From: an uncultured Saprospiraceae bacterium | GTDB taxonomy: Bacteria > Bacteroidota > Bacteroidia > Chitinophagales > Saprospiraceae | Assembly (NCBI GenBank): GCA_938039305.1 | Contig: CALHUZ010000537.1 | Coordinates: forward strand, 1 to 44,350 | DNA: 44,350 nt | Reading direction: 5' to 3' | Part shown: in pieces, positions 3,008 to 40,158 of the stretch | Numbering within the stretch: the first letter of the stretch is position 1 | Layout of the letters: the number at the start of each line of letters is the position of its first letter | The notes under the pieces: generated by a model | What the model saw: only the letters and a program-made list of their open reading frames with translations | Told to the model about the DNA's origin: nothing | Database searches by the model: none | Translations under genes and position numbers: made by a program

Positions 3008-3033
3008 TCAGGATAGGGCAGGATAGTACTGGT
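3008..3033 (+). promoter_or_regulatory. Site A of the recurrent direct-repeat element (TCAGGA-tagg-GCAGGA-tagt-ACTGGT)
   Basis: Three 6-nt units at 10-bp phase, ending 70 nt before the ATG at 3103. A -7-like box TAAATTTA at 3046-3053 lies 22 nt after the second unit. The same element occurs at five other intergenic sites. Confidence 0.6.
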
Positions 3034-3102
3034 CATTCAAATGAATAAATTTAGCAATCTTGAAGATTGAAATAGATATTCAGTTGGAATAAACACTCTT
3101 TT

Positions 3103-6100
3103 ATGCGAAGTATCGCCTTTATCTTAGTACTATACCTTCTCAGTTCTTGCGTTCATTCTGTAGATGCTCAACAAGAAGCAGCGGTTGACAAGCCAAATAT
3201 TATTTTTATTCTTACCGATGATCAGCGATTTGATGCCATTGGCTATGTAGGTAATGAATTTGTCCAAACGCCTGAAATGGATCGGTTAGCCCAATCTGGG
3301 ACCTACTTTCATAATGCTGTCGTAAGCACTCCAATTTGTGCAGCCAGTCGGGCAAGCATTTTAACAGGTCTATATGAGCGTAGCCACAATTTTAATTTTC
3401 AGACAGGGAATGTACGCGAGGAGTACATGAAGAATTCTTATCCAAGATTACTTAAGGAGCATGGGTATTATACTGGTTTTTATGGAAAGTATGGTGTGCG
3501 CTATAACGAGTTGGAAAAACAGTTTGATGAATATGAGTCATATGATCGCGATAATAATTTCAAAGACAAAAGAGGTTATTTCTATAAAACAATTAATGGT
3601 GATAGTGTTCATTTAACGAGATATACTGGCCATAAGGCATTAGAATTTATAGATCAAGCTAAAAGGGGTCAACCTTTCTGTTTATCATTAAGTTTCAGCG
3701 CACCGCACGCACATGATCCAGCAGAAGACCAATATTATTGGCAAAAAGAAGTGGACCCATTATTATCTGAAACTATCATACCTGGCCCAGATTTGGGAGA
3801 GGACAAATATTTTGATGCTCAACCAAAAATTGTTAGGGATGGGTTCAACAGATTTCGATGGACGTGGAGATACGACAACCCTGAAAAATACCAACATAGT
3901 CTAAAGGGGTATTATCGGATGATATCTGGAATCGATCTGGAGATTGCAAAAATACGTAAGAAATTAGAAGAAAAAGGGCTCGACAAGAATACTGTTATTA
4001 TTCTGATGGGTGATAATGGCTACTTCTTGGGTGAGCGTCAACTTGCAGGGAAATGGCTGATGTATGACAATTCTATAAGGGTCCCTTTGATCGTATTTGA
4101 TCCGAGAATTGATCAGCATCAAGATATCACTGAGATGGCATTGAATGTTGATGTACCATCCACTATAGTCGATTTAGCAGGTATTGAAGCACCAAATACA
4201 TGGCATGGTCAAAGCTTAATGCCCATCGTTAGAAAAGAACTCAATACCCTTGGAAGAGATACGATTTTGATTGAACATATTTGGGATTTTAGCGAGATTC
4301 CACCGAGTGAAGGGGTTAGAACTAAGGATTGGAAATACTTTAGATATATAAATGACAAAACGATAGAAGAGCTTTATCATCTAAAAGATGATCCGAAAGA
4401 AATTAATAACCTTATTAAGGATTCAAAATATAAAAAGGTGGCTGCCGCCTTACGTAAAAAGTGCGATGAATTAATCAAAAAGAACAGTAATCAATATAGA
4501 ACGCCCCCTACAGAATTGACTGTTGAGTTAATTAGGGCTCCTGAGTCTGAGGTTGAAGTAGTGGATACTAAACCTGAGTTTGGGTGGACCGTACCATTGG
4601 CTTCAAAATTTCAATCTGCCTATCAAATTCTAGTAGCAACCTCTAATCCTGTCATTGACGCAAACAATGGTGATGTCTGGGATAGTGGGCAGGTACGATC
4701 CTCATCTTCCACAGACATAGAGTATGATGGTACCCCACTTGAAATCGGAAAAACATACTTTTGGAAAGTGAGGATATGGGATGAAGAGAATCGCTTAGTT
4801 GATTATTCTCAGTCGCAGCAATTCACTATAGGAGAAAGTGATGACTATATGGTCTCTACTACTAACAAGTTTATGGTCACTAGGGTCAAGCCTGTTAATT
4901 TCGAAAAGCGAGGTGATGTATATTTTATGGATTTTGGCAAGGCTGCCTTTGCTACTATAGGTTTTACTTATAAGGCTAAAAAGCGGCATACACTAACTTT
5001 CAGAATTGGGGAAATGCTGGATGTTAATGGTAATGTAAATAGAACACCCCCTGTGAAAAGTAATATCCGATATCAAGAAATAGAGGTGGAGGTGAAACCA
5101 ACGCAGACAAAGTACCAAATTCAGATTGAGCCAGTCCCTGATAAACGAATGAAAGGGCCAAGCAAGGCTATTCCTTTGCCAGAAGGATTTCCTGTGTTGC
5201 AGCCTTTTAGGTACGCGGAAGTTGAAGGTGCTACAACTGCTATAAAAGCGGAAGATTTTGAACAGCTCAGGCATACAGGTTACTGGGATGATGAAGCAAG
5301 TAGCTTTAACAGTGATAACGATACTTTGAATCAGATTTGGGAGATGTGCAGGTATTCTATCAAAGCAACCACATTTTGTGGGTTGTACATTGATGGTGAT
5401 CGAGAGCGTATACCTTATGAAGCGGACGCATATCTCAATCAGTTAAGTCACTACACTACGGATAGAGAGTATGCCATAGGGAGGCGTACGATTGAGTATT
5501 TTATGCAAAATCCAACATGGCCGACGGAGTGGCAGCAGCACGTTGCTTTACTCATTTATGCAGACTACATGTACACTAGTAATACAGAGCTGATCGAAAA
5601 GTATTATGAACCTTTAAAACATAAGACCTTATATGAATTGTCTAATGAGGATGGGTTAATCACATCTACGAAAGTCACAGAAGATTTTATGTACAAACTT
5701 GGTTTTGAACCTGGGTATAAGAAGCCTCTGACTGACATTGTAGACTGGCCAAGCCCTAATTTTATGGGAAGTGGAAATAAAGGTGCTCGTGATGGTTTTG
5801 TCTTTAAGCCTTATAGTACCGTGATAAATTCGTTTTTCTATGAGAATATGAAAATCATGGCAGAGTTTGCAAAAATCTTGGGCAAGACCCAAGAGGTGCT
5901 GGACTTTGAATTAAGAGCAGCCAAAGCTAAAAAAGCTGTAAACGAGAAGATGTTTGATAAAGAACGAGGGATCTATGTAGATGGTATCGGTACGGATCAC
6001 GCATCGCTACACGCCAATATGATGCCTTTAGCATTTGGCTTAGTACCAGAAGAGTATGTAGAGTCTGTCGTCAAGTATGTGAAGTCCCGAGGAATGGCCT

Positions 6101-6633
6101 GTAGTGTATATGGTGCTCAATTTTTGATGGATGGATTATACAATGCTGGGGAAGCTGATTATGCTTTACAATTATTAGCCAGTACATCAGAGAGAAGTTG
6201 GTATAACATGATAAGAGAGGGCTCTAGCATCAGTATGGAGGCATGGGGCTACAAGAATAAAATAAACTTGGATTGGAATCATGCCTGGGGTGCCGTACCT
6301 GCTAATATTATACCAAGAGGTTTATGGGGTATACAACCTAAGACTGCAGGCTTTGGTATTGCTAGAATTAAACCACAAATGAGCAGTTTAAAATCGAGTA
6401 CAATAGAGGTACCAACAGTCAAAGGCGTTATCAGAGGAAATTATAAATACAATGGCGCTCGCCTTCAAACTTATAAAATAGAAATACCTGCTAATATGGT
6501 GGCAGAGTTTTCACTCAATAATCTTGAAGGAAAAGATTTAATACATAATGGTGAAAAAGTACCCTCTGCTTATGAAGTTATTAGATTAGCACCAGGCAGT
6601 CATACTATTCAGCTCAAAATTAATTCGTTCTAA
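3103..6633 (+). CDS. Bimodular enzyme: N-terminal S1 sulfatase fused to a C-terminal GH78-like alpha-L-rhamnosidase module
   Basis: aa ~30-460 carry [27 protein letters not shown] (C-x-A-x-R at nt 3337-3351) and [10 protein letters not shown]. From aa ~470 come GH78 N-domain motifs: [24 protein letters not shown]. The six-hairpin region follows, with [13 protein letters not shown] (nt 5392-5430) where GH78 normally has DCPxRExxGWxGDA. Single uninterrupted 1176-aa ORF with a signal peptide. Confidence 0.85.
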
Positions 6634-6839
6634 AGTATTGATGACATACACTTTGGTCATTATAGATACCGATAACATCCGTTCAGTCAAGGATAATTAG
6701 TATTGAGGTCAGGGAGGCAAAAGAGATATGATATAGAGAAGAAACTATTAACTCCCTAAGTTGACGTTGGGTCAAATACGTAGGGCTAGAAATGCTTGAG
6801 AACTGGTCTCAAGGTAATCATAAGATGGGGGTTGTTGAA

Positions 6840-6875
6840 ACAGGATAGTACAGGACATATCCCAAATCATCCTGT
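6840..6875 (+). promoter_or_regulatory. Site B of the recurrent direct-repeat element (ACAGGA-tagt-ACAGGA, plus an inverted TCCTGT)
   Basis: Perfect ACAGGATAGTACAGGA at 6840-6855, ending 63 nt before the ATG at 6918. An inverted unit TCCTGT lies at 6870-6875. Confidence 0.6.
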
Positions 6876-6917
6876 GTTAACTTACCACAACAATAAAAAG
6901 TCTTAATAGAACTTCCT

Positions 6918-7757
6918 ATGTCAAAGTTGTATGTTGACAATGTACTTAAAACCCAAGGTCTAAGCCTGTTCTCTGTACGAGCTACATCTTGTAAAGAGGG
7001 CCATACTCTACTTTTTTCAACGCTTATCATCATTCTTTTTATCGCTTTCACAGGATTGATTAGTGGTTGTTCTGAGGTGTCAGATCACGAAGAGAAGGAA
7101 GAAGATATTGAGGAGGAGGAGATAGAAGAAGTGGATGATTGTATTTCTGGTCAACTATATCTTGAAAAAGATGGAGTACTCCGTGTAGATCTTAAAAATC
7201 CCAATCCAATAGATAATGATTGGAAGTTGGAAAAGACATTTCAAGGATATGAAGGAGAAGGGTATCTGATCTGGAAGGGTGATGATCACTTCAATACTCC
7301 TGGTGAAGGGGTATTGTCCTATTCAATACAAATAACCAATCCAGGGACATATCAATTTGTTTGGCGATCAAGAATTGGTGCTGGCACTAAGAACACAGAG
7401 CATAATGATTCATGGTTGAGGATATCAAATACATCAGATTTCTATGGTGAGAAGGAAAGCACAGGTGAAAGAGTGTATCCAGTAGGAAGTGGCAAATCCC
7501 CTAGTCCAGAAGGCTCAAGTAAAGATGGGTGGTTAAAGGTATATATGAATAGATTAAACGAATGGTTCTGGCGATCTACGACTAATGATAAAGATCCATT
7601 TAACGTTTTTGTCGAATTTGATGTTTCGGGAATCTATGTCATTGAGATTTCGGGGCGATCTGCATATCACGCGATTGACCAATTTGTTTTATTTGAAACA
7701 GGACAATTAATTGACCAAGCTACAACTGCGGCATACAGTGAGATAAGATGCAATTAA
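6918..7757 (+). CDS. Hypothetical surface lipoprotein; beta-rich, carbohydrate-binding-module-like (family not recognised)
   Basis: Lipobox LISGC (Cys codon 7068-7070) followed by the acidic tract SEVSDHEEKEEDIEEEEIEEVDD. The remainder is aromatic and Gly rich (GEGYLIWKGDDHF, GTYQFVWRSRIG, HNDSWLRI, WFWRSTTND), as in beta-sandwich binding modules. It is the first gene after site B. The unusually long N-region suggests the true start may lie downstream of 6918. Confidence 0.55.
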   Translation: MSKLYVDNVLKTQGLSLFSVRATSCKEGHTLLFSTLIIILFIAFTGLISGCSEVSDHEEKEEDIEEEEIEEVDDCISGQLYLEKDGVLRVDLKNPNPIDNDWKLEKTFQGYEGEGYLIWKGDDHFNTPGEGVLSYSIQITNPGTYQFVWRSRIGAGTKNTEHNDSWLRISNTSDFYGEKESTGERVYPVGSGKSPSPEGSSKDGWLKVYMNRLNEWFWRSTTNDKDPFNVFVEFDVSGIYVIEISGRSAYHAIDQFVLFETGQLIDQATTAAYSEIRCN

Positions 7758-7842
7758 AGATATTGACTGTATGATTTGGTTACAATGTAAAGAGTCATTC
7801 AGTCTTTCAAATTGAAGAAATAATAACAAATATTAAATCCAG

Positions 7843-10140
7843 ATGGCGTCAATCCAATGTGAAGCGATGATGAATAAAATACTCCTTGTCTCTTTCTACA
7901 GTATAGTGTTATATATGACATCGTGTGGAGATTCCAATTATAATTCCAACGACTACAAGGATTCTAACTTATCTATAGAAGAACGAGTAGAAGCACTACT
8001 TCCATTGATGTCGCTTGAGGAGAAGGTCGCACAAATGCGAATCTTTCATGCCAATATAGGTGTACGGACTGATGAAGATGGAAACTTACAACTATCTGAT
8101 AGAGTTGTTGAGAAGCTCAAATTAGGTATCGCTGGTATTAAAAATCCAGGGGAGCACCTTAGTCCAGTAGCGGCAGCAAAAATGAACAATGAATTACAGA
8201 AGTACATTATTGAAAATAATCGATGGGGGATACCAGCCTTATTTGTTACAGAATCATATAATGGGGTAGATGCTGAAGGCTGTACTAAATTTGGTAGGCC
8301 ACTTACTTCGGCGGCTTCATTTAATAGAGACTTGATCCATCGCATGTGGGATGTTGTAGGAAGAGAAGCCCGACTACGCGGAATGCATATGTGTCATTCT
8401 CCTGAAGCGGATATAGTTCGGGATCCACGGTTTGGGCGTATGAGTGAAGCGTGGGGAGAAGATACCTATCTTACTACAGAAATGGTTATCCAAGCCACTA
8501 AAGGAGTACAAGGTAATTATAAAGGATTGGGAGAGGGAACACATATCGGAGCAGTAGTAAAGCACTTTGCAGGATATGGACAGGTTTTAGGAGGATCTAA
8601 TTTTGCAGCAGTTGAAATATCAGAAAGAACCTTAATAGACGAAATATATCCACCTTTTGAAGCTGCAGTTAAAGAAGCCAGCACCTTGGGTGTAATGGCA
8701 TCTCATGGAGATCTGAATGGCATCGCAACTCATGGCAATAAAGCATTGTTAACTCACCTACTTCGGGATGAGTGGGGTTTTCTTGGGTACCTAATTTCCG
8801 ACTCCAATGATATTGCTAGATTATTCTATTTTATGAAAGTAGCAGAATCACCAGAAGCAGCAGCATTAATGGGATTAGAGGCTGGTATTGATATAGATTT
8901 GTATGCTGAAGATTCATATGCCTACCTACCAGAAATGGTCAAGTCTAATCCTGAAATTGAAGAATTAATTGACAGGTCTGTAAGAAGAGTGCTGAGGGTT
9001 AAATTTATTTTAGGGTTATTTGACAATCCGTATGTTGATGTTGCTGAAGTAGCAAAAGGCGTTCGATCTACTTCCTCTTTAGCACTTGCAAAAGAAGCTG
9101 ATTTAGAATCTATTATTTTATTAAAAAATGAAAACGAATTATTGCCTCTTAATAAAAATAGGCCAGCCAAGATCGCCCTTTTAGGCCCATTGTTACACGA
9201 ACGTACTCAATCCATGTTTGAATCCGTTGCTGGATCAAAATATACATTTACGGCGGATAGGGGATTTGCTCTAACTGATGAGCAAAAAGGAGCTCCAAAT
9301 TTGTTAGCTAGGGATCCGGAAGTCATAGCAAGATTGTTGTCCAAATCACGTCAGGCTGATGTGACAATATTGTTTTTAGGAGGTGATGAATATACCGCAA
9401 AGGAGGCATATTTTAATAATGCGGTTGGAGACCGTGCTACCATCGATCCTGTTGGGCCACAAGATGAGTTATTGGAAAAAATCAAGGCTTTGGGCAAACC
9501 TGTTATTGTAGTTTTAAAACATCGTAGAACCTTATCCATCAATACGATCTCCAAAGAGGCAGATGCGATTTTAGATACCTGGGATCTAAGTGAATACGGA
9601 GACGAGTCTACAGCAAGAATCATATTTGGGGAGACCGTTCCGTCAGGCAAACTACCTGTCACAGTACCTCGGTCGATTGGCCAGTTTCCATTTCACTATA
9701 GTATGAAGGAAATAAATTATAAAAAGGGCTACCTATTTTTGGAAGACGGTCCCATCTATCCATTTGGTTTTGGTCTCAGTTATACAACTTTTGAATATTC
9801 AGATATAGCTATATCTAGTGAAGTACTAACACCGGGAAGTGAAATAGAAGTTTCTGTCACTATTACCAATACTGGGGATGTCCGCGCAAAAGAGGTCGTT
9901 CAAATGTATATAAAAGATGAGATTGGTTCTGTTTCGAGGCCTGATAAAGAATTGAAAGGATTTGACAAAATAGAAATCGATCCGGGTGAAAGTAAAAATG
10001 TATCTTTCAAAATCACTCCCCAAATGCTGGCCTTTACTGGCCCCAGGATGGAACATATATTAGAAGCTGGAGACTATACTGTAATGGTTGGCACATCCTC
10101 CAATGAATATTTAGAAACGAAATTCAAATTAAAGAAATAA
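7843..10140 (+). CDS. GH3 beta-glycosidase (beta-glucosidase/beta-xylosidase type), lipoprotein
   Basis: GH3 motifs KHFAGYG and [10 protein letters not shown], plus the C-terminal [14 protein letters not shown] and a fibronectin-like tail. The likely true start is the Met at 7867/7870 (MNKILLV...TSCGDS). Confidence 0.9.
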
Positions 10141-10141
10141 G

Positions 10142-11269
10142 ATGAATAGAATTGTATTGATAAGTGTTACGATCTTTACTCTTTTCAGCTGTACTGTTAC
10201 CCAACAAACAGTGGCTCAAAATGCGATCAATAAGAATGAGATAAAAGCTTCAATGATCAAAGCTTTGGAATGGCAAGAAGCCCATCCTATCATGGCACTT
10301 GCGCCTACGGATTGGACTAATGGTGCATATTATACAGGTGTAGCCAGAGCTCATGAGACAACCAATGATATGATGTATATGGCGGCGTTGAAAAACCAGG
10401 GGTATCGGAATAATTGGAAAACCTTTAAAAGGTTGCATCATGCTGATGACGTGGCGATTTCATACAGTTACTTATATGTAGATAGGGCTGAGAATAGAAG
10501 AAATTTTGTTGATCTAACCTCTACAAAAGAATTTCTGGATGCACATTTGTATATGCCGGATCAATGGAAAGAAGGAAATGATAAAAGTGAAATGGGTAAA
10601 ACCATTTTATGGTGGTGGTGCGATGCACTATTCATGGCTCCTCCAGTAATTAATCTATATGCCAAACAAACTGGCCAACCAAAATATCTGGACGTAATGC
10701 ATAAGTATTATATAGAAACTTATGACCAGTTATACGATCAAGATGAACATCTATTTGCCAGGGATATGCGCTTTGTCTGGAAAGGTTCGGACAGAGATCA
10801 AAAAGAACCTAACGGGAAAAAAATATTTTGGTCTCGTGGTAATGGCTGGGTCATTGCTGGACTTGCTTTGTTATTAGATGACATGCCAATGGATTATAAG
10901 CACCGTCCCTTTTATGAGGAGTTATATCAGGAAATGGCTGCCAAAATATTAGCTATTCAACCAGATGATGGTCTGTGGAGAACGAGTCTTTTATGTCCAG
11001 AATCATATGATCATGGTGAGGTTAGTGGTAGTGGCTTTTACACTTTTGCACTTACATGGGGAATTAACAACGGCCTCTTAGATAGAAAATATATTTCAGC
11101 AGTGAAAAGAGCTTGGCAAGCATTAAAGGCATGTCAGCATAAGGATGGTAGAGTAGGTTGGGTTCAAAATATTGGCGCATTTCCCGAGCCTGCCTCTGCT
11201 GACAGCTGGCAAAATTTTGGAACAGGAGCTTATCTTTTGGCTGGTAGTGAAATACTAAAGTTGAAATGA
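10142..11269 (+). CDS. GH105/GH88-type unsaturated uronyl (rhamnogalacturonyl/glucuronyl) hydrolase
   Basis: YteR-like motifs [34 protein letters not shown] and [12 protein letters not shown]. The start is 1 nt after the GH3 stop, so the two are co-transcribed. Confidence 0.8.
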
Positions 11270-11337
11270 TTTTGCGAGTGCTATTTTGTTTTAATTATTG
11301 AACATCTTTTCGTATCCAATAGATAATTTAAGCAGCT

Positions 11338-13086
11338 GTGAGTAAACATCGATTGTTCTTTTTGGGAGCTATGACAATGGGCCTGGCCAGTTGCATGTAC
11401 TTTAATAGCTGCACGGTAAAAAATGAAGCTTTCGCAAAAAGTATCAATGCGGATCGTCCGAACATCTTATGGTTGGTAGCGGAAGACTTGGGTCCATATT
11501 TACCACCATTTGGAGATTCTACCATTACAACACCAAATCTTAGTCGATTAGCAGAAGAAGGAGTTGTCTATCCAAATTTGTTCTCTACTTCAGGAGTCTG
11601 CGCTCCGAGCAGAGCAGCTATAGCTACAGGAATGTATCCATCTAGTATCGGCGCTAATCATATGCGTACCAATAGCAATATGGATGAAACTGGTCTGCCG
11701 GCTTATGAAGCTGTTCCTGGCGCTGAGGTAAAGATGGTTAGTGAATTACTTAGGAGGCAAGGTTATTATTGCACAAATAATTATAAAGAGGATTATCAAT
11801 TTAAAGCGCCGGTAACGGCCTGGGATGAAAGTGGGCCATATGCTCATTGGAAAAACCGAAAATCAAATCAGCCATTTTTTTCAATTTTCAATTTTACAGA
11901 AACACACGAATCGGGATTGTTCGAGCCTTATGGACATAGGCATATTGAAACTCGACACCATCATCCAGGAGACACTAGCTACACTTGGGAGCCAGGTAGG
12001 ATGACTGAAGAAGAAACACCTGTACACCTTCCAAAAGGTACTAACTTTTCAATTCCTCCCTACCTACCGGACAATGAAGTTGTACAAAACGATATGTGGA
12101 AGCTTTATAATAATATAGCTGAAATGGACAAGCAACTGGGGGCAGTTTTGAAGCAGTTGGAAAATGATGGCTTATTGGAAAATACGATCATCTTTTTTTA
12201 CGGCGACCATGGAGGCCCCTTACCGCGACAAAAACGGCTGATTTACGATACAGGGTTGAATACACCGATGATTATTCGTTTTCCTGGCAAAGAAAAGTCA
12301 GGAACAATAGACGAACAGTTAGTGAGTTTTATAGATTTCGCTCCGACACTTTTATCATTGGTGGGTGTCATCCCTCCATCCTACATACAAGGTCAAGCTT
12401 TTTTAGGTTTCTATAAGAGCAAGAATGAAAGAAAATATATACATGCAGCGGCAGATCGATTTGACGAAGTCACAGATGTTATTCGCGCTGTAAGAGATAA
12501 TCAGTATAAGTATATTAGAAACTATCGGCCTGATGCGCCTTTTTACTTACCTCTTAATTATAGAGAACAAATTCCAACCATGCAAGAGTTATTGCGACTA
12601 AGGGATGAAGGTCAATTGGATGATATACAAATGCAGTGGTTCAGAGCAAGAAAACCTGTAGAAGAATTATTTGATTGTCGAAGGGACCCTCATGAACTTG
12701 AGAACATCGCTAACAGTCCAGCGTACAAAGAAAAGCTTCAAGCGCTCAGAAATGAGATGGATCAATGGTTAGAAGCGATTGGAGATCAGCCAAATTTTCC
12801 TGAGCAGGAATTAATCACCCAACTTTGGGGTGGCCGTACAACTCAGCCTGTTACTGCACAACCAGTTATCGAAATGGCAAACAAGAAGATTAAAATCACG
12901 TGTGCTTCACAGGGCGCTTCGATAGGGTATAGGGTAATCAAAAAGGATGGTGATCTACCCAAAGGTTGGACGATTTACACAGAGCCTATAGACATACCGA
13001 ACGATTCTAAGATTTTAGTTCAGGCACATCGCATCGGATACAAAGTGAGTAATATAGAAGAAGTAGAAACAGATATATTTTACTAA
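11338..13086 (+). CDS. S1 sulfatase (formylglycine-dependent)
   Basis: PNILWLVAEDLGP, SGVCAPSRAAIATGMYPSSIGANHMR and YGDHGGPLPRQKR. GTG start in the ORF track; Met codons 11 and 13 residues downstream (MTMG) are alternative starts. Confidence 0.9.
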   Translation: MSKHRLFFLGAMTMGLASCMYFNSCTVKNEAFAKSINADRPNILWLVAEDLGPYLPPFGDSTITTPNLSRLAEEGVVYPNLFSTSGVCAPSRAAIATGMYPSSIGANHMRTNSNMDETGLPAYEAVPGAEVKMVSELLRRQGYYCTNNYKEDYQFKAPVTAWDESGPYAHWKNRKSNQPFFSIFNFTETHESGLFEPYGHRHIETRHHHPGDTSYTWEPGRMTEEETPVHLPKGTNFSIPPYLPDNEVVQNDMWKLYNNIAEMDKQLGAVLKQLENDGLLENTIIFFYGDHGGPLPRQKRLIYDTGLNTPMIIRFPGKEKSGTIDEQLVSFIDFAPTLLSLVGVIPPSYIQGQAFLGFYKSKNERKYIHAAADRFDEVTDVIRAVRDNQYKYIRNYRPDAPFYLPLNYREQIPTMQELLRLRDEGQLDDIQMQWFRARKPVEELFDCRRDPHELENIANSPAYKEKLQALRNEMDQWLEAIGDQPNFPEQELITQLWGGRTTQPVTAQPVIEMANKKIKITCASQGASIGYRVIKKDGDLPKGWTIYTEPIDIPNDSKILVQAHRIGYKVSNIEEVETDIFY

Positions 13087-13140
13087 AAAAAGTCTAAGAC
13101 TATCATCGAGATCATCTGTACCTCATTAATTAGAATAACT

Positions 13141-13455
13141 ATGCAGCGACTTGCTTTTAAAATGAAATTAAACCCGGGACAAAAAAATACTTACACGAAG
13201 AGGCATAATGAACTATGGCCTGAGTTAAGACAGCTACTAAAAGGTAATGGCGTGAGTGAGTATTCGATTTTTTTAGATGAAGAGACCAATACACTATTTG
13301 CATTTCAAAAAATATCTGGAGAAGGAGGATCTCAGGATCTGGCTGATAATGAAATTGTACAGAAATGGTGGGATTTTATGGCAGACATTATGGAGGTAAA
13401 TCCGGATAATTCTCCAATTTCAATTCCATTGGAAGAGGTGTTTTATATGCCATAG
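13141..13455 (+). CDS. rhaM: L-rhamnose mutarotase
   Basis: 104 aa. The N-terminus (MQRLAFKMKLNPGQ...YTKRHNELWPEL...GVSEYSIF) matches the RhaM/YiiL family in pattern and size. Confidence 0.85.
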   Translation: MQRLAFKMKLNPGQKNTYTKRHNELWPELRQLLKGNGVSEYSIFLDEETNTLFAFQKISGEGGSQDLADNEIVQKWWDFMADIMEVNPDNSPISIPLEEVFYMP

Positions 13456-13474: not shown

Positions 13475-13490
13475 AACGGACAGTACAGGA
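13475..13490 (+). promoter_or_regulatory. Site C of the recurrent direct-repeat element (AACGGA-cagt-ACAGGA)
   Basis: Ends 70 nt before the ATG at 13560. A -7-like box TATATTTT at 13511-13518 lies 20 nt downstream. An extra GATAGT lies at 13461-13466. Confidence 0.55.
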
Positions 13491-13559
13491 TAGAGTCAAT
13501 TCCTAAACTCTATATTTTTAAGGACACCATAAGATTTTCAAGAAATAGAGTTAAATCAC

Positions 13560-15470: not shown

Positions 15471-15531
15471 TTGAGGGGCTTTTGCTGTATAAAAGACATT
15501 ATGTGGTAATTAAATTTTAAAGTAAAATTCT

Positions 15532-19425: not shown

Positions 19426-19805
19426 GTTTTGTTATTTGGTTATGGCTTCTCTATATATTGTGATGGTAGACCATCGCCTTTAGTCAAATCGGACCGATAA
19501 TGCCAGATACAGTAACAGTAACAAAGATTGATAAATGTTTAAAACGATACTTTTATTGATACATGAGCACTTTTTTGAAACCAGATTATAAGGTATAAGG
19601 AAAGAATCGTCAGTCTTTGTTGATTTCAATCGGTAGCCTAATTGTGATCACCTATTCAAATTTGATGACTTCATATGATGCTTCATTTGGAAAAGTATCT
19701 ATAAATTTTAAAACGTTGTTAATGACATACTTTTAAGTTAATGCCACAACCTCCATTTGGTAAATTTGCATTTAGATAATTATTTGTAGAGTAATAAAAC
19801 AGCTT

Positions 19806-19832
19806 AAAAAGGCATGCAGACTTGTGTCTGCA
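19806..19832 (-). terminator. Candidate rho-independent terminator downstream of susD
   Basis: On the minus strand, stem TGCAGAC/GTCTGCA (19815-19821 with 19826-19832), 4-nt loop, then TGCC and TTTTT (19806-19810). It lies about 110 nt after the susD stop. Confidence 0.4.
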
Positions 19833-19943
19833 CACCTTTCGTATGAAAAAACTATCTACTTTCTTGTGGAACCTATTATTTCTTGGGTCACGTAAATTAG
19901 TCAAATCACTCTTTTATACAATGTTCATTGCACGTAACAAATC

Positions 19944-21497
19944 TTAATAGCCTGGATTTTGTGTCAAATTTGGATTTAATTGCAACTCATTTAAAGGAAT
20001 TGGCAGCAAAACGTGATAGTCTTTTATATTCTCGTTTGGAGCATAGGTTTTAAATTTAGCGTTGCGAACAACGTCCAAATAAATACCCCATCTGATTAAA
20101 TCGTATCTTCTTGTTGCCTCAGCTGCTAACTCCCATTTTCGCTCGTCGTAAATAGCTTCCCTGAAGCCTTGTTGGTCAAGTCCTGTCAAATCCCATTCAT
20201 CTTGAGTTTCATAGGCACGTTGCCTGATCGGATGAATATATTGGTAAGCCCCATCAGGTCCATTCAATTCGTTTTCGCACTCTGCTGCCATTAAATAGAC
20301 ATCACCAAGTCTAAATACCAATCTATTATCTCCGTGATTGAAACGAGGCGAAGTCTCAAAATTAAGGGACATAAATTTAGGCATGTAGGTATGATTCAAT
20401 TCGAAACCCGCATACGAATCCATAATGTTTAATGGTCTTCGTAGATCATTAGTGGGGAATTTCTCATAAAAATCTACTGATGCTATCTGCAGTCCAGTGC
20501 CATTAAACTCCTGTCCATTGTCTCTTAGGGCAGTTCTTAAAGGGCCCCTATCTGCTGCATTTGCCGGTTCGTCTCTAATACGTGGGTTGAAGAGACTTGG
20601 TCTCCAATAATTATTTCCTGCAAATGAACGACCTGGGAAAGCCGGCTCGAATTGACCTGTAATATCCTTAGCAAAATCTAAAGACCATATAATTTCTGCA
20701 TTGTATTCATTGGCCGGATCAAAAACTTCAGCATAAGTTGGAAGTAACTCGTGCGGTGACCCATTAATGATTTCTAAACATTTGCTTAGACCAGCTTGCC
20801 AATTTTGATCTGCCATATGAATTTTTGCTTCAATTATCGCTGCTGCCCATTTAGTGGCCCTACCTCTATTCTCAGTCGTATTAACAGATGGCAGGTTGTT
20901 TTGCGCAAACGTCAAGTCGTCCAATACACTGTCTATAATTACATCCTTACTGGTTCTTCCCAGTTCTGCAATTTCATTTAAGGTCAATAGTTCATTGTAA
21001 AATGGTGCGTCACCCCAAAGATTTGTTATATGCCAATAGGACAATGCACGCAAAAATCTAGCCTGAGCTATAACATCGGCCTGAACATCTTGTGAGATGT
21101 CCTGATTGCCGTCCACTCTATCAATAATAACATTGGCATTTAGGATAACTCTATATAAATTTTGCCATGTATCCGAAACACTCATTAATTGGTTCGAGGC
21201 ATCGGCAGTAACTGCACTTAAAGTATAATTCCCCATCACCTCAAATATTGGATGAGTTCGATTTGGTTCTATAATATCGACTCCGTTATCATACCAATTG
21301 TCTAACCCCGCTTGCCCATAGATAGAGTTGTTTTTAATTACAGAATATACACCCGTTATGGCTTGATTTGCATCCGCATCGCTAGTGAAAAAGTTTTCTG
21401 GAGCAATAATGTTTCGTGGTTCTTCCTCTAAAAAATCTTCACAACCAATCAATGTGATTATTAGGAAGACGTACAGAAATATGTTGTGTGTTTTCAT
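19944..21497 (-). CDS. susD: SusD/RagB-family outer-membrane glycan-binding lipoprotein
   Basis: Lipobox LIGC followed by the acidic EDFLEEE. SusD-like TPR-rich N-half (RFLRALSYWHITNLWGDAPF) and C-terminal YDERKWELAAEATRRYDLIRWG. Immediately downstream of susC. Confidence 0.9.
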   Translation of the reverse strand: MKTHNIFLYVFLIITLIGCEDFLEEEPRNIIAPENFFTSDADANQAITGVYSVIKNNSIYGQAGLDNWYDNGVDIIEPNRTHPIFEVMGNYTLSAVTADASNQLMSVSDTWQNLYRVILNANVIIDRVDGNQDISQDVQADVIAQARFLRALSYWHITNLWGDAPFYNELLTLNEIAELGRTSKDVIIDSVLDDLTFAQNNLPSVNTTENRGRATKWAAAIIEAKIHMADQNWQAGLSKCLEIINGSPHELLPTYAEVFDPANEYNAEIIWSLDFAKDITGQFEPAFPGRSFAGNNYWRPSLFNPRIRDEPANAADRGPLRTALRDNGQEFNGTGLQIASVDFYEKFPTNDLRRPLNIMDSYAGFELNHTYMPKFMSLNFETSPRFNHGDNRLVFRLGDVYLMAAECENELNGPDGAYQYIHPIRQRAYETQDEWDLTGLDQQGFREAIYDERKWELAAEATRRYDLIRWGIYLDVVRNAKFKTYAPNENIKDYHVLLPIPLNELQLNPNLTQNPGY

Positions 21498-21509
21498 AAT
21501 AATTTTTTT

Positions 21510-24500
21510 TTAAAATGTTACGTTAAGTCCCAAACTTAAAATTCTAGCATTTGGATACTCACCATTTGAAAAACCTTGAGCAATATTACCCAAACCACCT
21601 CTGCCAAATCTACTGGACTCTGGATCAATTAATCTGAAATCAGATAATAGTAACAAATTAGTTCCTGAGGCATAAAGCGACATTTTTTCTATACCCTTCC
21701 AGCCCATTTTGTTAACTGGAAAATTATATGTCAAGCGGACATTCTTTAGACGTAAATGTGTACCATCTTCAATCTCAAAAGAATTGGGTTGATAGGCACC
21801 TTCAACAAACCCTGGTCTAGGAATATCCGATGTTGGGTTGTTAGCCGACCAGTAATCAGCAACTTCTGCATACTTTGGAAGCTCACCACGAATAAAAAAG
21901 CTATTACGTGATCTTAAATTATAGACTTCATTACCAACGGTACCTTGTATATAAATACTTAAATCAAGATTTTTGTAAGAGATATTGTTTCCAAATCCGA
22001 AAATTAGATCTGGCCATGGATTACCTAATACTTCAAAATCCTCGTTAGATATGGTGCCATCTCCATTTGTGTCTTGATATCTGGGGCCTCCAACAGCATT
22101 TGTTGCTGGATCTTGACCTGAAGCAGCAATTTCTTCTTGACTTTTCCAAGTTCCTAAATACTGTGCTCCCGTAAATACTGGTGATGGTTCACCAACGATT
22201 AATCTTAAGTTCCCCGCACCAAGAATCTGGTCTACGACTACATCTATAAATTCTTCTCCACCAAGATCCAATATCTTATTCTTATTCGACGATAAGGTGA
22301 TAGTAGAATTCCATTTAAAATCAGGCTTTGAAACATTATATGAAGTAAGCAAAAACTCCCATCCTTTGTTCTCTAAAGAACCAATATTTCGCAATTGATT
22401 AGTATACCCTGTTTGTCTTGGTATAGTGACATTCAATAACAGGTCATTAGTCTCTTTTTGGTAATAGTTGAATTCTGTAAAGAGTCTACCATCGAATAGC
22501 GAGGCTTCTAAAGCAATATCAAATGCTGTAGTTGTTTCCCATTTCAAATCTGGATTTGCTGGCCTTCCCAGTAGTGCGCCTGGAACTTCAATGCCATTAA
22601 ACGAGGTATTTGCTTCTACTAAAACACCTAAGGTATTATATGGAGAGATGGCCTGATTTCCTGATTTACCATAACTGACTCTTAATTTTAAATCCTCAAA
22701 GGTGGATTGATTTTGCATAAAAGGTTCTTGCGAAATTTTCCAAGCAGCTGCTACAGATGGATAAAACTCATATTTATTACCTGGAGCAAACACCGAACTT
22801 CCGTCACTTCTACCTACTAATGTTAATAAGTACTTGTCGTTAAACGAATAGTTAAGCCTTCCGAAGAAGGATACAATTGAATTTTGGGTAAAAGAAGAAC
22901 CCAGTAAGTTCCTTAATGGATCGCTCCCTGTACCTAAATTGTTAAATGTAGTTGCATCTGTTGTAAAACCGAAAGCTTGTGAAAAAGCAGTCTCTCTGGT
23001 TGTTTTCTGAAAAGATGCTCCACCTAAAAGAGTGTAGCTATGATTGTCATTAAAGTCCCCTGAATATTGAATGGTATTTTCGTTATTCCATCCAAAAGAG
23101 GACACTGATCCGATTTTAGCATTACTATCTGTAGTAGGAAGATCAGGTCTTTGGCTAGACGTAAACTCATTTCTTTTAGAAGTAGTAATATCGGGATTAA
23201 ATGTTGAGCGGAGTATTAGATTTTCAATAGGACTATACTCTAAAAATACTGTCCCTAACAAATTGTTTATAGAAGACTCATCTATATCCAATTGTGATGT
23301 TGCAACAGGATTGTTAAAGGGATTTCCAACTACTTCATTTCTTCCATTAAAAGAACCATCATCATTAAATACGGGCTGGGTTGGTAAAATGCCAAGTAGA
23401 CCGCTATAGCCAACAACACCATTTTCCTGATTAATTCTGGAATAATTTAAACGGAAACCTGCATTCAATTTATCACTTAACTTAAAATCCAAGTTTGATC
23501 TAAAAATAAATTTTTGGATTCCAGAATTATCAATGAGACCATCTTGGTCGTAATAATTTAGCGAGTTATAATAATTAACATCACCATTTTCTGAAGAACC
23601 AGCTATAGAAACATCGGCATTATATATTGGTGATGGGTTTAACAAAAGGTCGAAAAAGTTATTATCTGGATAGTCTGATGGATTTCCTGGAAATGGCTCA
23701 GCTACACCTCTAAGTATTGCATCTTGATTAGTGTAATCTATTTGTTGTGCTTGATTTAAATATGCGGGTCGCTCAGGTACCATCTGCGTACTAGTATATA
23801 GTCCCACACTAACTTGAGGTTTACCATTTCCACCTCGGGCTCCGCTTTTAGTGGTAACTAATACAACACCATTTGCACCTCTAGACCCATAGATAGCAAT
23901 TGAGGATGCATCTTTTAGTATCTCAATGGATTCCACATCATTGGCATTAAGATTATTTAGGTTGAAATTCGTGCCGACAATAATTCCATCAATAACCCAA
24001 AGTGGTTCATTACTACCTGTAATGGAGTTGCCACCTCTAACTCTTATGGATGTACCTGCACCAGGTGCACCACTAGTTTGTGTAACCTGCACACCTGCGG
24101 CCCTTCCTTGTAAAGCTTGATCAATTCTCGAAACAGGTACGGCTGCAACATCTTCGGCGCCTATAGAAGATACTGAACCTGTTAGATCTGACTTCTTTTG
24201 TTTACCGTATCCTACGATAACTACATCACTTAAGATTGAACCTTCTTCGAGGGTCACATCAACAGTTGATTGATTAGTTACATCAACTTCTTGATCTTGA
24301 TGTCCAGCATAGGTAAAGACTAAGACCTTATCTCCGTCCTGAAGACTTAAAGAGTAGGTTCCGTCAAAATCAGTAATGGTACCATTTAAAGTACCTCGTT
24401 GTAATATATTTACACCTATCAGTGTTTCTCCATTAGAGGAGTAAACTGTTCCAGTTATGTCCTGACCAAAGCCGTAAAAGCTTGTCAGCGTAAGAAACAG

Positions 24501-24581
24501 AATGTACAAAAGAGATGAATTTTTTGGTGGAGAGTATTCGACCCTCAGATAATGATTAGCAATTTTTTGAAATCTTATCAT
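21510..24581 (-). CDS. susC: SusC-like TonB-dependent outer-membrane transporter
   Basis: Carboxypeptidase-regulatory-like N-domain (ITGTVYSSNGETLIGVNI), TonB-box/plug region (DVVIVGYGKQKKSDLTGSV, IEILKDASSIAIYGSRGANGVVLVTTK), a 22-strand-size barrel, and a C-terminal LGLNVTF. Confidence 0.92.
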   Translation of the reverse strand: MIRFQKIANHYLRVEYSPPKNSSLLYILFLTLTSFYGFGQDITGTVYSSNGETLIGVNILQRGTLNGTITDFDGTYSLSLQDGDKVLVFTYAGHQDQEVDVTNQSTVDVTLEEGSILSDVVIVGYGKQKKSDLTGSVSSIGAEDVAAVPVSRIDQALQGRAAGVQVTQTSGAPGAGTSIRVRGGNSITGSNEPLWVIDGIIVGTNFNLNNLNANDVESIEILKDASSIAIYGSRGANGVVLVTTKSGARGGNGKPQVSVGLYTSTQMVPERPAYLNQAQQIDYTNQDAILRGVAEPFPGNPSDYPDNNFFDLLLNPSPIYNADVSIAGSSENGDVNYYNSLNYYDQDGLIDNSGIQKFIFRSNLDFKLSDKLNAGFRLNYSRINQENGVVGYSGLLGILPTQPVFNDDGSFNGRNEVVGNPFNNPVATSQLDIDESSINNLLGTVFLEYSPIENLILRSTFNPDITTSKRNEFTSSQRPDLPTTDSNAKIGSVSSFGWNNENTIQYSGDFNDNHSYTLLGGASFQKTTRETAFSQAFGFTTDATTFNNLGTGSDPLRNLLGSSFTQNSIVSFFGRLNYSFNDKYLLTLVGRSDGSSVFAPGNKYEFYPSVAAAWKISQEPFMQNQSTFEDLKLRVSYGKSGNQAISPYNTLGVLVEANTSFNGIEVPGALLGRPANPDLKWETTTAFDIALEASLFDGRLFTEFNYYQKETNDLLLNVTIPRQTGYTNQLRNIGSLENKGWEFLLTSYNVSKPDFKWNSTITLSSNKNKILDLGGEEFIDVVVDQILGAGNLRLIVGEPSPVFTGAQYLGTWKSQEEIAASGQDPATNAVGGPRYQDTNGDGTISNEDFEVLGNPWPDLIFGFGNNISYKNLDLSIYIQGTVGNEVYNLRSRNSFFIRGELPKYAEVADYWSANNPTSDIPRPGFVEGAYQPNSFEIEDGTHLRLKNVRLTYNFPVNKMGWKGIEKMSLYASGTNLLLLSDFRLIDPESSRFGRGGLGNIAQGFSNGEYPNARILSLGLNVTF

Positions 24582-24617: not shown

Positions 24618-24663
24618 CAAATATATATTTCGGCAAGTAACAAGACATCCTGTGCTGTACTGT
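24618..24663 (-). promoter_or_regulatory. Site D of the recurrent element (ACAGTA-cagc-ACAGGA on the minus strand) plus a consensus -7 box
   Basis: On the minus strand, ACAGTACAGCACAGGA occupies 24663-24648. Then 22 nt, then a perfect Bacteroidota -7 box TATATTTG (24625-24618). The ATG of susC at 24581 is 67 nt from the repeat. Confidence 0.6.
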
Positions 24664-24697: not shown

Positions 24698-25747
24698 TTA
24701 GGCAGATTGCCTATCGATAAAGTTGAATTCGTTTTGTTGAGAAGAGAGCTTTCTGGTAAGAATCATTTGTGCTGCAGAGACACCTAGTTTTTTAAAGTTT
24801 GTACTGATAACGCTTATGCCTAGTAGTTCTTTTAATGGAGTGTCATTGTATGAAATAATTCCGATATCCTCTCCCATTTTGTACGAGCTTTTACGAAGTT
24901 GAGTGATTAAGTTTATTAAGTCTTCTTCTTGGAGCGTGATATACAAATCTTTGGACTTGAATTCTATACCATCAAATATTTTAGGCAATACTTCGTAGTC
25001 AACATTGATGGACTTACAAAACTTTCTAAATCCCTTAACGATCTCTTTGGGATAAGGATAAACAACTTTCTTAGGATAAATAAGAAGTACTTTTTTATAA
25101 GTATTTAGTTGGTCTGCAATACGTGTTAAGGCGTTATAAATATCTGCTTCAAAGTCTTGATAAATTCTTCCGAAAATTTTGGAAGTATTTTTTATATCAC
25201 GGTCTAAGAGTATCAGTTTATTAGCCGGTATCTGCTCAATTACATTCAATAGATCCCGTGGGCAATCGATGTACTGAAACCGGTCGTTTTTAAAATGAGG
25301 GACTATAATGTAATAGTCATATTTTGATTGATTCGCTGTAAGTATTTTCTTCAAAATCAAAGGATCACAATAGTATATTTCAAGATCAACTTTAATATTT
25401 GTTTTGTTAAGTGCTTCCACAAATGAGTTGAAGACTTGAGTTTTATAACTACTCAACTTGTTGATCACAAAAAGCACACGTACTTCAATTGATAAATCAG
25501 TCTCAGCGATATAATATCCTTTACCTCTAACAGAGATTATTATTTTCTGATCTAAAAGAGTATTGTAAGCTTTTTTTACTGTATCTCTAGATAGGCGATG
25601 TGTTTTACTTAAGTGATTAATGGACATGATTTTATCACCTACGAACAGTTGTTCATCTCTTATACCTCTTTTTATCGCGTTAATGATCTGCTTATACTTG
25701 GGAACAGTAGAAGCTTCATCAATAGATATATAGCCGTCTTCGATCAT
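24698..25747 (-). CDS. Transcriptional regulator: GntR-type winged HTH fused to a LacI/periplasmic-binding-protein-like sugar sensor
   Basis: N-terminus VPKYKQIINAIKRGI...INHLSKTHRLSRDTVKKAYNTLLDQKIIISVRGKGYYI (GntR HTH). The C-terminal ~250 aa have an alternating beta/alpha PBP-like pattern. Clear paralog of 35506-36594. Confidence 0.8.
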   Translation of the reverse strand: MIEDGYISIDEASTVPKYKQIINAIKRGIRDEQLFVGDKIMSINHLSKTHRLSRDTVKKAYNTLLDQKIIISVRGKGYYIAETDLSIEVRVLFVINKLSSYKTQVFNSFVEALNKTNIKVDLEIYYCDPLILKKILTANQSKYDYYIIVPHFKNDRFQYIDCPRDLLNVIEQIPANKLILLDRDIKNTSKIFGRIYQDFEADIYNALTRIADQLNTYKKVLLIYPKKVVYPYPKEIVKGFRKFCKSINVDYEVLPKIFDGIEFKSKDLYITLQEEDLINLITQLRKSSYKMGEDIGIISYNDTPLKELLGISVISTNFKKLGVSAAQMILTRKLSSQQNEFNFIDRQSA

Positions 25748-25938
25748 AAATTATATTGAAGAAATTATCATAAGGTCCATGGCTCTATAAACTTTAGTTT
25801 ACTCTAAGTTGTGGCATAAGTACCGCTTGTTAGGATTAGGCATTAAATATAGTTTTGTGTCATGATATCATCGTCTTTTCTAATAAATTAACCTATTTAA
25901 ATATTTTTTACCTAAAAGAACTGTTTTAGCAAGCATTG

Positions 25939-30258: not shown

Positions 30259-30278
30259 AATATTGAATAAGACTAAAA

Positions 30279-33038: not shown

Positions 33039-33121
33039 TGACTATTTATAGTTTCTGTTAATATTTCTGCTGCTTTATATACACTTTTAGGTAGTACTAT
33101 ATCGACAAAGTGATCTTATCT

Positions 33122-35272: not shown

Positions 35273-35415
35273 AGAAAAAATGAGCTCATATTTTTTAGGT
35301 ACTACGCAACATGTATTTACATATCTGTATTACTTGCCAGGGTAGTTGGAGGTAATAGTTAAGGAAGTACTGGTTTAAAATATTACTAGTATAACGGGAA
35401 TTAGATGAAGTAGCA

Positions 35416-35431
35416 TCCTGTACTATCCTGT
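35416..35431 (-). promoter_or_regulatory. Site E of the recurrent direct-repeat element (ACAGGA-tagt-ACAGGA on the minus strand)
   Basis: The plus strand reads TCCTGTACTATCCTGT, a perfect copy in the direction of the GH3/GH78/propeller/sulfatase operon. It lies 144 nt before the ATG at 35272, the only site that departs from the ~63-70 nt spacing. Confidence 0.55.
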
Positions 35432-35505
35432 GGATTTAATTATAAATCTTAGTCCCAAGAATGCATCTCGATGTTGGATGATGATAGCCGTTACAAAGGT
35501 AAAGT

Positions 35506-36594
35506 TTAAATAGAATCGCGATCTATGAACCGGAATGGGTTCTTAACCATTTTATTTTCTTTATTAAGGATCATATCTGCGGCAGTTTCACCCATTTGCT
35601 TGAAATCGGTAGAAATCACGGTTATGCCTAACAGTTCTTTAAGAGGAGTTTCGTTATATGAAATGACACCGATATCCTGGCCAATTTCATATTCATTTTC
35701 TCTTATTAAATTAATTAAATTAACGAGGTCAGACTCTGTGATTGTTATAAAAAGGTCTCCCTTTTTTAATATCATATCCTCGAATATTTCTTCCAATACC
35801 TCAAACTTAAGTTGGTGTTGGTTACAAAATTTACGGAAGCCTTGAGATATTCTTCTGGGATAAGGATAGACTGATGAGGTAGGGTAGGCGATGATTAAGC
35901 GTTTGTATTTTTTAATTTTCTCCAACCCTTCGTTAAGGGCATTATAAATATCGTTTTCAAAATCCTGATAAACACCTTTAAAGCTTTTGTCACCTGATAA
36001 CTTGTTGTCAATAATCAACAGCTTTTCTTTTGGTATCTTTTCTAACTCTTCATCAATGGCACTGGAAGTACTTTTATGAGCCAAGGTTTCCGACTTAAAA
36101 TGGGGCATTATGATATAGTAGTCATAGGCATTTTGATATTTTTTCAAGAACTCAAGAAACAGACGCTCATCACAATGATAGATATTCAAATCAGTATGAG
36201 CCACCCCTCCAATTCTATTAATGAATGAATTATAGATCTGCATTTTGTAAGAACTGGGCTTATTGATCAGAATGAGTATATTGATTTTGGATATGAGCTG
36301 AGTGCGAGCCACATAAAATCCCTTTCCTCGAATCGAGGTGATAATTTTACGTTCTTTTAAAATGTTATAAGCTTTTTCAACGGTGTCCCTTGATAGATCG
36401 AAAGTCTCGCTAAGCATATTTATAGAAGGAATCTTTTGCTCCATACTTAGCCGGCCATTGGAAATATTAAAAATAGTGGAATCAACTATTTGTTGATATT
36501 TAGGTTTTCTTGAGTCTTTATCAATGCTAATGAACTTAGATACCTCCATCGGATTAAATCTTTTGCTATTGGAACTTACAATCGAAATGTACAA
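35506..36594 (-). CDS. Transcriptional regulator: GntR-type HTH fused to a LacI/PBP-like sugar sensor (paralog of 24698-25747)
   Basis: KPKYQQIVDSTIFNI...INMLSETFDLSRDTVEKAYNILKERKIITSIRGKGFYV. The C-terminus aligns by eye with the other regulator (YDYYIIMPHFK, YQDFENDIYNAL, VYPYPRRISQGFRKFC, ISYNETPLKELLGITVISTDF). The likely true start is the Met at 36549. Confidence 0.8.
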   Translation of the reverse strand: MYISIVSSNSKRFNPMEVSKFISIDKDSRKPKYQQIVDSTIFNISNGRLSMEQKIPSINMLSETFDLSRDTVEKAYNILKERKIITSIRGKGFYVARTQLISKINILILINKPSSYKMQIYNSFINRIGGVAHTDLNIYHCDERLFLEFLKKYQNAYDYYIIMPHFKSETLAHKSTSSAIDEELEKIPKEKLLIIDNKLSGDKSFKGVYQDFENDIYNALNEGLEKIKKYKRLIIAYPTSSVYPYPRRISQGFRKFCNQHQLKFEVLEEIFEDMILKKGDLFITITESDLVNLINLIRENEYEIGQDIGVISYNETPLKELLGITVISTDFKQMGETAADMILNKENKMVKNPFRFIDRDSI

Positions 36595-36638
36595 GGAATT
36601 AAGACCAAATGGATAGTTTGGCAGTGGATTTTTATATG

Positions 36639-36654
36639 TCGGGATAGTACAGGA
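36639..36654 (+). promoter_or_regulatory. Site F of the recurrent direct-repeat element (TCGGGA-tagt-ACAGGA)
   Basis: Ends 70 nt before the ATG at 36724. A -7-like TTATTTTG at 36676-36683 lies 21 nt downstream. An additional GGATAGT lies at 36611-36617. The site is in the divergent region shared with regulator 35506-36594. Confidence 0.6.
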
Positions 36655-40150: not shown

Positions 40151-40158
40151 TTTTCACA

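Follow-up and report, generated by a model that had tools for sequence, protein, structure and literature searches.

The stretch of DNA analysed here (the window: 44,350 nt, positions 1-44,350 of the forward strand of contig CALHUZ010000537.1, from the uncultured Saprospiraceae bacterium assembly GCA_938039305.1) holds an ulvan-type polysaccharide utilisation locus (PUL) joined to a rhamnose operon, and a short tandem direct repeat, noticed in an earlier reading made from the sequence alone, lies in front of the transcription units of both. We hold with high confidence that this repeat is the operator of a regulon, and it is probably bound by R1 and R2, two paralogous regulators encoded in the window that combine a GntR winged helix with a sugar-binding domain. 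One operator very probably switches the whole seaweed-sugar pathway as a unit. As to its mode of action, an activating site held in fixed geometry relative to the promoter is the explanation that we moderately favour.

The six sites in the window, A to F (Table 1), all read exactly as the sequence-only reading had given them, and they occur far beyond chance. The 13-mer GGAYAGYACAGGA has four exact matches (sites B, C, E and F) against about 0.005 expected under uniform composition; with up to two mismatches allowed there are 10 matches against 2.2 expected, a number reached by none of 100 dinucleotide-preserving shuffles, which served as the null for motif counts in the window. A position weight matrix (PWM) trained on other genomes only, with the window sites left out, was then run over the 44 kb. 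It returned seven matches above 13 bits, which are sites A-F with D in two registers, and no further strong site; shuffled windows give 0-3 matches above 8 bits. All seven matches are intergenic, as the sequence-only reading had stated of every copy.

The comparative set comprised 80 genomic loci (1.5 Mb; 12% intergenic, 88% coding), picked solely for encoding an orthologue of R2 (62-71% identity) and drawn from Flavobacteriaceae, Lewinella, Neolewinella, Marivirga and one Chitinophagales metagenome-assembled genome (MAG). The motif is kept beside the orthologous regulators in 73 of the 80 genomes, across four Bacteroidota classes (Flavobacteriia, Saprospiria, Cytophagia, Chitinophagia), and in 61 of 77 divergent regions between regulator and rha genes, bearing out the conservation upstream of orthologous operons on which the earlier proposal had been made to depend. 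An unbiased count of 8-mers in the regions upstream of R2 leads to the same sequence, with AGTACAGG and GTACAGGA ranking first (61 of 77 regions, and two on the other strand). There are 48 exact copies of GGAYAGYACAGGA in these loci where about 0.2 would be expected, most of them 100-310 nt upstream of the regulator and on the strand that faces away from it. In these loci the core GTACAGGA has 120 intergenic and 34 coding copies, an approximately 26-fold intergenic enrichment, with 114 of 117 intergenic copies pointing towards the gene that follows.

The consensus that emerges is a 19-bp tandem direct repeat, ACAGKAYAGT-ACAGGAYAS, made of two 10-bp units. Flanks that played no part in selection are conserved as well, as ACAGKAYA 5' of the core, YAS 3' of it and T-A-n-T-T-T-n-G from +30 to +37. 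Distances between CAGGA elements on the same strand, counted over the intergenic DNA of the window and the 80 loci, fall at 10 nt (32 times), 20 nt (5) and 30 nt (4), with every other distance found at most twice, and CAGGA has no preferred inverted partner in the same DNA. A palindromic reading centred on GTAC was considered and set aside: its halves mismatch, and only the central GTAC is self-complementary. The phasing at 10, 20 and 30 nt together with the lack of an inverted partner thus rejects a dyad and upholds the 10-bp direct repeat first proposed. The inverted TCCTGT noted at site B has no counterpart elsewhere in the window or the 80 loci and is probably incidental.

On the downstream side of the motif, conservation is otherwise confined to the positions of the Bacteroidota sigma-A -7 box, whose consensus is TAnnTTTG (PMC2483708, PMC7366714, PMC7641319). 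Measured between the final A of the second ACAGGA and the box T, the spacer comes to exactly 22 nt in 68 of the 112 unique contexts and to 20 nt in 10, other lengths occurring 0-2 times; the 19 nt between motif and box are not conserved. All six window sites have TA at the 22-nt position, with four to six of the six box positions matched. If the box lies at about -11 to -4, the operator would span roughly -50 to -32, with its centre near -41. The strict orientation and strict -7 spacing in the comparative data agree with the initial placement of the repeat over or just upstream of the -33 region. A -33 TTG is lacking at motif promoters, but control promoters of the same loci lack it too, and a -33 motif is reportedly not detectable globally in Flavobacterium johnsoniae (PMC7366714); its absence was considered as an argument for activation and is uninformative.

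This geometry also settles the register of two sites. Each 10-bp unit consists of two 5-bp sub-repeats, AYAGK (ACAGG + ATAGT), many genomes reading ACAGTACAGTACAGGA, and site D accordingly shows two overlapping registers 5 bp apart, both of them kept in a syntenic Saprospiraceae MAG locus; only the register given in the earlier reading fits the -7 box. At site A the 22-nt spacing fixes the register at 3008-3026, so that TCAGGA (3008-3013) and GCAGGA (3018-3023) form the functional pair and the third “unit”, ACTGGT, is incidental. The near-fixed distance to the start codon that had been reported does not hold as such, since in the window it ranges from 62 to 143 nt, and elsewhere its median is 73 nt: what is fixed is the 22-nt spacer to the -7 box, and the near-constant distance to ATG follows from this geometry combined with short leaders.

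Which protein binds the repeat? In the neighbourhoods of the 80 loci the sole conserved regulator-like cluster is R2 itself, present in all 80, with rhaEW and rhaI found in 64. The motif stands directly after the regulator stop codon in many loci of both paralogue clades; loci of the R1 clade are arranged as regulator, then site, then target, and the syntenic Saprospiraceae MAG (L201) keeps the sequence of site D. R1 and R2 have near-identical recognition helices (SRDTVKKAY and SRDTVEKAY), an N-terminal GntR winged helix of PF00392 type (Pfam E = 2e-7 in R1, 5e-13 in R2) and a C-terminal Peripla_BP_3 domain (Pfam), which is a sugar-binding domain of GalR/LacI type. The AlphaFold model of R2 has a mean predicted confidence (pLDDT) of 80.7, with a low-confidence linker at residues 83-87, and its Foldseek matches are to the cores of LacI, RbsR and CcpA (E ~1e-12). 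The R2 start, formerly placed at TTG 36594, was corrected to ATG 36549 because the homologues are 347 aa long. That R1 and R2 bind the repeat as their operator is, on the strength of these linkages, a probable assignment.

A second, 58-59% identical R2-like paralogue lies in tandem upstream of the R2 orthologue in three of the loci (L009, L021, L070; ~8800-9880), so duplication of the regulator is recurrent rather than particular to this window.

The genes behind the motif give the regulon its character. In the genomic loci they are rhaEW (39 sites), susC (16 sites) and, in Flavobacterium, rha operons led by RhaT, along with a 471-aa permease, rhaM, GH28, a DUF4450/GH78-like protein, a GDSL esterase, GH43 and GH5. 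The regulator thus has the company expected of a rhamnose-utilisation regulon, R2 standing beside rhaEW/rhaI in 64 of the 80 loci and the motif upstream of rhaEW/rhaT operons. A second set, of 120 metagenome loci (L081-L200), was gathered by way of the motif instead of the regulator; on its contigs with a canonical -7 box, the downstream genes encode PL11 rhamnogalacturonan lyase (2), GH106 rhamnosidase, susC-type receptors, GH78 and rhaEW, and five of the 120 loci carry an R-like gene (62-65% identity in L090, L116 and L199; 39% in L138 and L156). Since the motif stands in front of rhamnosidase and PUL susC genes as well as those of rhamnose catabolism, the idea that it ties the PUL and the rhamnose pathway into one regulon finds support beyond the window. 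In content, then, the regulon comprises rhamnose catabolism and the use of whichever rhamnose-rich polymer the organism feeds on, ulvan here and rhamnogalacturonan in Flavobacterium, which makes L-rhamnose or a close derivative the likeliest signal.

Arrays of three to four units are frequent at PUL susC promoters, as against two units at rha promoters; the susC promoters of L008, L014, L034, L045, L005 and L080 are examples, with 10/20/30-bp phasing. Such arrays suggest cooperative or graded occupancy at PUL promoters.

The metagenome scan used the pattern AGGAYAGTACAGGAYAG, and only about 20 low-GC matches with a -7 box came from it; most of the contigs returned were of higher GC or eukaryote-like, and on these the pattern is part of simple repeats or a chance match. 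Matches to a 17-mer outside Bacteroidota lie mainly inside simple ACAGG/ACAGT tandem repeats, on higher-GC contigs of eukaryotic or host-like appearance, so exact-pattern scans of large collections are dominated by unrelated sequence.

How might such a site work? We propose that a regulator dimer would set its two winged helices head-to-tail on the two 10-bp units (ACAGGAYAGT x2), the 10-bp phasing putting both on one face of the DNA, with a flexible linker in R1 and R2 joining each winged helix to its LacI/GalR-type sugar-binding domain. L-rhamnose or a close derivative would be sensed, and the bound regulator would contact RNA polymerase as class II activators do, controlling rhaEW-rhaI-rhaB-lldD-permease together with susCD, GH78, GH3, GH88/105 and sulfatases. 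We lean towards activation rather than repression, since the motif keeps one orientation and one spacer length at promoters that are not homologous. Taken as a whole, an operator of R1/R2 with fixed geometry and activating effect is the best explanation we can offer, and a reasonably likely one. More tentatively, an AraR-like GntR/LacI chimera may act as a class II-type activator at -41 and constitute a phylum-wide L-rhamnose switch outside Bacteroides, with duplicated sensors R1 and R2 sharing one operator in ulvan degraders; two sensors, possibly with different ligands, would then jointly gate the PUL and the monosaccharide pathway.

Several points weigh against this proposal. Most sugar-responsive GntR- and LacI-type regulators repress, AraR (PMC1950556) and AusR among them, and the repeat, lying over the -33 region that sigma region 4 or the alpha subunit would occupy, could equally block RNA polymerase. 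A symmetric LacI-type dimer on a tandem repeat would need flexible DNA-binding domains, and the estimate of -41 depends on the TAnnTTTG match being the true -7 box. The loci were chosen through R2, which makes the co-occurrence of regulator and motif partly a matter of design, and the motif-anchored metagenome contigs are mostly too short for a test of the regulator. The first of these points leads to a classical sugar-released repressor: R1/R2 would occupy -50 to -32 without rhamnose and block RNA polymerase, and rhamnose or a derivative would free the promoter. The -7 boxes are near consensus, so that the promoters may be intrinsically active, and the phased arrays of three to four units at some susC promoters resemble cooperative repressor binding. 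Steric repression, however, needs neither a single orientation nor a single spacer, and at non-homologous promoters 114 of 117 copies are co-oriented and 68 of 112 lie exactly 22 nt from the -7 box; almost no sites lie over the -7 box, the start site or the leader, unlike AusR operators. We regard repression of this kind as possible but rather unlikely.

The partial dependence of the linkage on how the loci were chosen also leaves room for a genuine operator bound by another transcription factor encoded elsewhere, for instance of AraC type or a hybrid two-component system (HTCS), in which case R1 and R2 would have other targets; Bacteroides AraC/HTCS regulators, the AraC-type RhaR included, typically use direct repeats (PMC3870299, PMC3878776). 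Those repeats, though, have a periodicity of about 21 bp and not 10 bp, whereas direct-repeat operators are documented within the GntR family itself for NanR, FarR, NagQ and MocR types (PMC4494728). Across the 80 neighbourhoods no second regulator cluster is conserved, and the motif is found within the divergent region of the regulator itself in 61 of 77 cases as well as after its stop codon in both clades, which makes another factor improbable. The fixed position relative to the -7 box could further be taken to mean a core promoter element rather than a regulator site, that is, the -35-like box of an alternative or extracytoplasmic function (ECF) sigma factor, or a duplicated promoter cassette, and ECF sigma/anti-sigma pairs often control PULs. 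Yet the downstream element is the housekeeping sigma-A box, a 19-bp motif of two units is far longer than a -35 element, and the motif is confined to rhamnose-linked genes, 41 of the 148 perfect -7 boxes in the loci carrying it. The unconserved 19 nt between motif and box exclude recent duplication of a cassette, and no sigma or anti-sigma domain was found among the scanned and annotated genes of the window; a core element is thus very improbable. An RNA element was also rejected, the motif being upstream of the -7 box and an Rfam search of the window giving no match.

Table 1. Operator sites, -7 boxes, regulators and target genes in the window; boxes are scored as matches out of six to TAnnTTTG.
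Feature	Position	Strand	Sequence	Remarks
Site A operator	3008..3026	+	TCAGGATAGG-GCAGGATAG	PWM 13.1 bits
Site A -7 box	3046..3053	+	TAAATTTA	5/6; 22 nt past second unit
Sulfatase-GH78 fusion gene	3103-6633	+		downstream of site A
Site B operator	6840..6858	+	ACAGGATAGT-ACAGGACAT	PWM 25.4 bits
Site B -7-like box	6878..6885	+	TAACTTAC	4/6; 22-nt spacer
Unit hyp279-GH3-GH88/105-sulfatase-rhaM	6918-13455	+		downstream of site B
Site C operator	13475..13493	+	AACGGACAGT-ACAGGATAG	PWM 26.1 bits
Site C -7 box	13513..13520	+	TATTTTTA	5/6; 22-nt spacer
hyp636-GH78	13560-18399	+		downstream of site C
susC-susD pair of ulvan PUL	19944..24581	-		target
Site D -7 box	24618..24625	-	TATATTTG	6/6; 22-nt spacer
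Site D operator	24645..24663	-	ACAGTACAGC-ACAGGATGT	between R1 stop and susC start; PWM 13.5 and 20.9 bits
R1, paralogue of R2 (47% identity)	24698..25747	-		Pfam, R1-clade loci
Operon GH3-GH78-BNR_4-sulfatase-sulfatase	35272 down to 25939	-		downstream of site E
Site E -7-like box	35386..35393	-	TATACTAG	4/6; 22-nt spacer
Site E operator	35413..35431	-	ACAGGATAGT-ACAGGATGC	between R2 stop and GH3-led operon; PWM 28.6 bits
R2, candidate binding protein, 347 aa	35506..36549	-		Pfam, orthologues at 62-84% identity, AlphaFold and Foldseek
Site F operator	36639..36657	+	TCGGGATAGT-ACAGGACAG	divergent R2/rhaEW region, faces rhaEW; PWM 24.7 bits
Site F -7 box	36677..36684	+	TATTTTGG	5/6; 22-nt spacer
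Operon rhaEW, rhaI, rhaB, lldD, NCS1-like permease (471-aa membrane protein)	36724..44122	+		target

The enzymes of the PUL are a PL28 ulvan lyase, three GH78 rhamnosidase domains (one of them sulfatase-fused), two GH3 and one GH88/105; its other genes comprise seven sulfatase-domain genes, a BNR_4 protein, rhaM and susCD. Two of the operator-led first genes have no Pfam or NCBIfam family. They encode proteins of 636 aa (13560-15470, +), whose only trace is a weak GH76 match (E = 0.012), and 279 aa (6918-7757, +), and both are conserved-unknown candidates for ulvan processing.

The PL28 lyase gene (18466-19425, -) is preceded by a 519-nt gap (19426-19943) without an operator (PWM <8 bits). This gap holds a hairpin, tgcagac-acaa-gtctgca, followed by a T-run after susD near 19815-19850, although a terminator scan of the gap called nothing under its own rules, this hairpin included; a distinct 6-7-bp tandem, GTTACTGTTACTGT, lies near 19505-19520. 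As a “pioneer” enzyme, the lyase may stand outside the rhamnose regulon, resembling the basal alginate lyases of the AusR model. The 191-nt gap upstream of R1 (25748-25938) likewise lacks an operator, and transcription of the site E operon (GH3 through sulfatase) may continue into R1, in which case the shared operator would govern one of the regulator paralogues.

The last gene of the rha operon (42707-44122, +) encodes the 471-aa multi-pass membrane protein, which has no Pfam or NCBIfam match even at E = 5; its homologues (84-89% identity) are named “purine-cytosine permease family” or NCS1. Of the 67 loci with rhaEW, 28 have this permease and 29 have RhaT, without overlap between the two groups, and in four genomes an operator copy of its own leads the permease gene. 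The protein may be an L-rhamnose permease that takes the place of RhaT in marine taxa.

The general role of the regulator had already been anticipated: its family carries a database role name for rhamnose utilization. Rodionova et al. 2013 (PMC3870299) give the same name among the roles listed in a supplement, the only place where the GntR type is named; their main text is limited to LacI-, DeoR- and AraC-type regulators. The site, its architecture, its phylum-wide conservation and the link to ulvan PULs appear undescribed. Full-text literature searches found no paper that gives the operator, its tandem structure or its promoter geometry, and a literal search for GTACAGGA returned unrelated primer and sequence matches only; in the earlier reading, too, the motif was not recognised as a described operator. 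Regulation of marine PULs is barely known, and the AusR study of 2020 styled itself the first model for one (PMC7641319). In Formosa agariphila, levels of PUL proteins are reportedly increased on rhamnose as well. The present analysis provides a precise 19-bp site, a named pair of candidate regulators, L-rhamnose as predicted inducer and a promoter geometry that can be checked. Regulon membership becomes predictable from sequence in hundreds of genomes and MAGs, covering marine ulvan PULs as well as the rhamnogalacturonan genes of soil and freshwater Flavobacterium, and the operator could supply a rhamnose-responsive promoter module for the genetics of Flavobacteriia.

Among known systems, the RhaR regulons (PMC3870299) share with this one the RhaEW pathway and a regulator beside the rha genes that controls rhamnose catabolism together with rhamnosidase and rhamnogalacturonan genes. 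The DeoR-type RhaR even binds two imperfect direct repeats with 10-11-bp periodicity (PMC3870299). The protein family and the motif sequence are different, however, and the repeat of the Bacteroides AraC-type RhaR has a 21-bp periodicity. AusR of Zobellia galactanivorans is, like R1 and R2, a GntR-family regulator encoded inside a marine flavobacterial PUL, with one, two or three operator copies near TAnnTTTG and a regulon spread over several loci (PMC7641319). It differs in being of GntR/FadR type with an all-helical effector domain, in its palindromic operators (TKGTN2-3ACMA), which overlap the -7 box or lie at variable distances from it, and in that its repression was shown experimentally (PMC7641319).

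By its working rather than by membership, the proposed system resembles XylR, AraC and RhaS of E. coli, in which a tethered sugar-binding domain is combined with DNA-binding domains on direct repeats. The sugar-binding domain of XylR has the LacI/GalR fold, as do those of R1 and R2. XylR, AraC and RhaS activate transcription from sites that adjoin the -35 region or extend over it. They have a DNA-binding domain of AraC type and act at sigma-70 -35/-10 promoters, in contrast to R1 and R2, which have a GntR winged helix and for which activation is inferred. Within the GntR family, precedent for binding tandem repeats is given by NanR (TGGTATAW), FarR, NagQ and the MocR types GabR and PdxR (PMC4494728), although these have other effector domains, repeat sequences and spacings, and none is reported as an AraR-like chimera.

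AraR of Bacillus subtilis has the same layout as R1 and R2, an N-terminal GntR winged helix with a C-terminal GalR/LacI-type sugar-binding domain, which is the defining architecture of the AraR subfamily (PMC4494728). In both systems a monosaccharide pathway is controlled together with the glycoside hydrolases that release the sugar, the operators have a GTAC core, and several in-phase operators may serve one promoter. Sequence matches of R2 in the PDB are to GntR DNA-binding domains, AraR (4egy) among them; the N-terminal domain of AraR ranks second with a single sequence and ninth with a profile, among YtrA and HutC proteins, and the C-terminal domain was not retrieved in these sequence searches. 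Because R2 is no closer to AraR than to YtrA and HutC, and because the AraR operator is palindromic, R2 is best called AraR-like in design and not a proven member of the AraR subfamily; its layout may go back to common descent with AraR or to a separate fusion of the two domains. AraR is known from Firmicutes, whereas the R1/R2 family is found in Bacteroidota, and AraR acts by repression and looping from a 16-bp palindrome, ATTTGTACGTACAAAT, at varied promoter positions (PMC1950556), a pattern that the window motif does not follow. R1 and R2 would instead use a head-to-tail 2 x 10-bp repeat at fixed position and orientation, and so would give the AraR-like architecture a tandem-repeat mode of binding.

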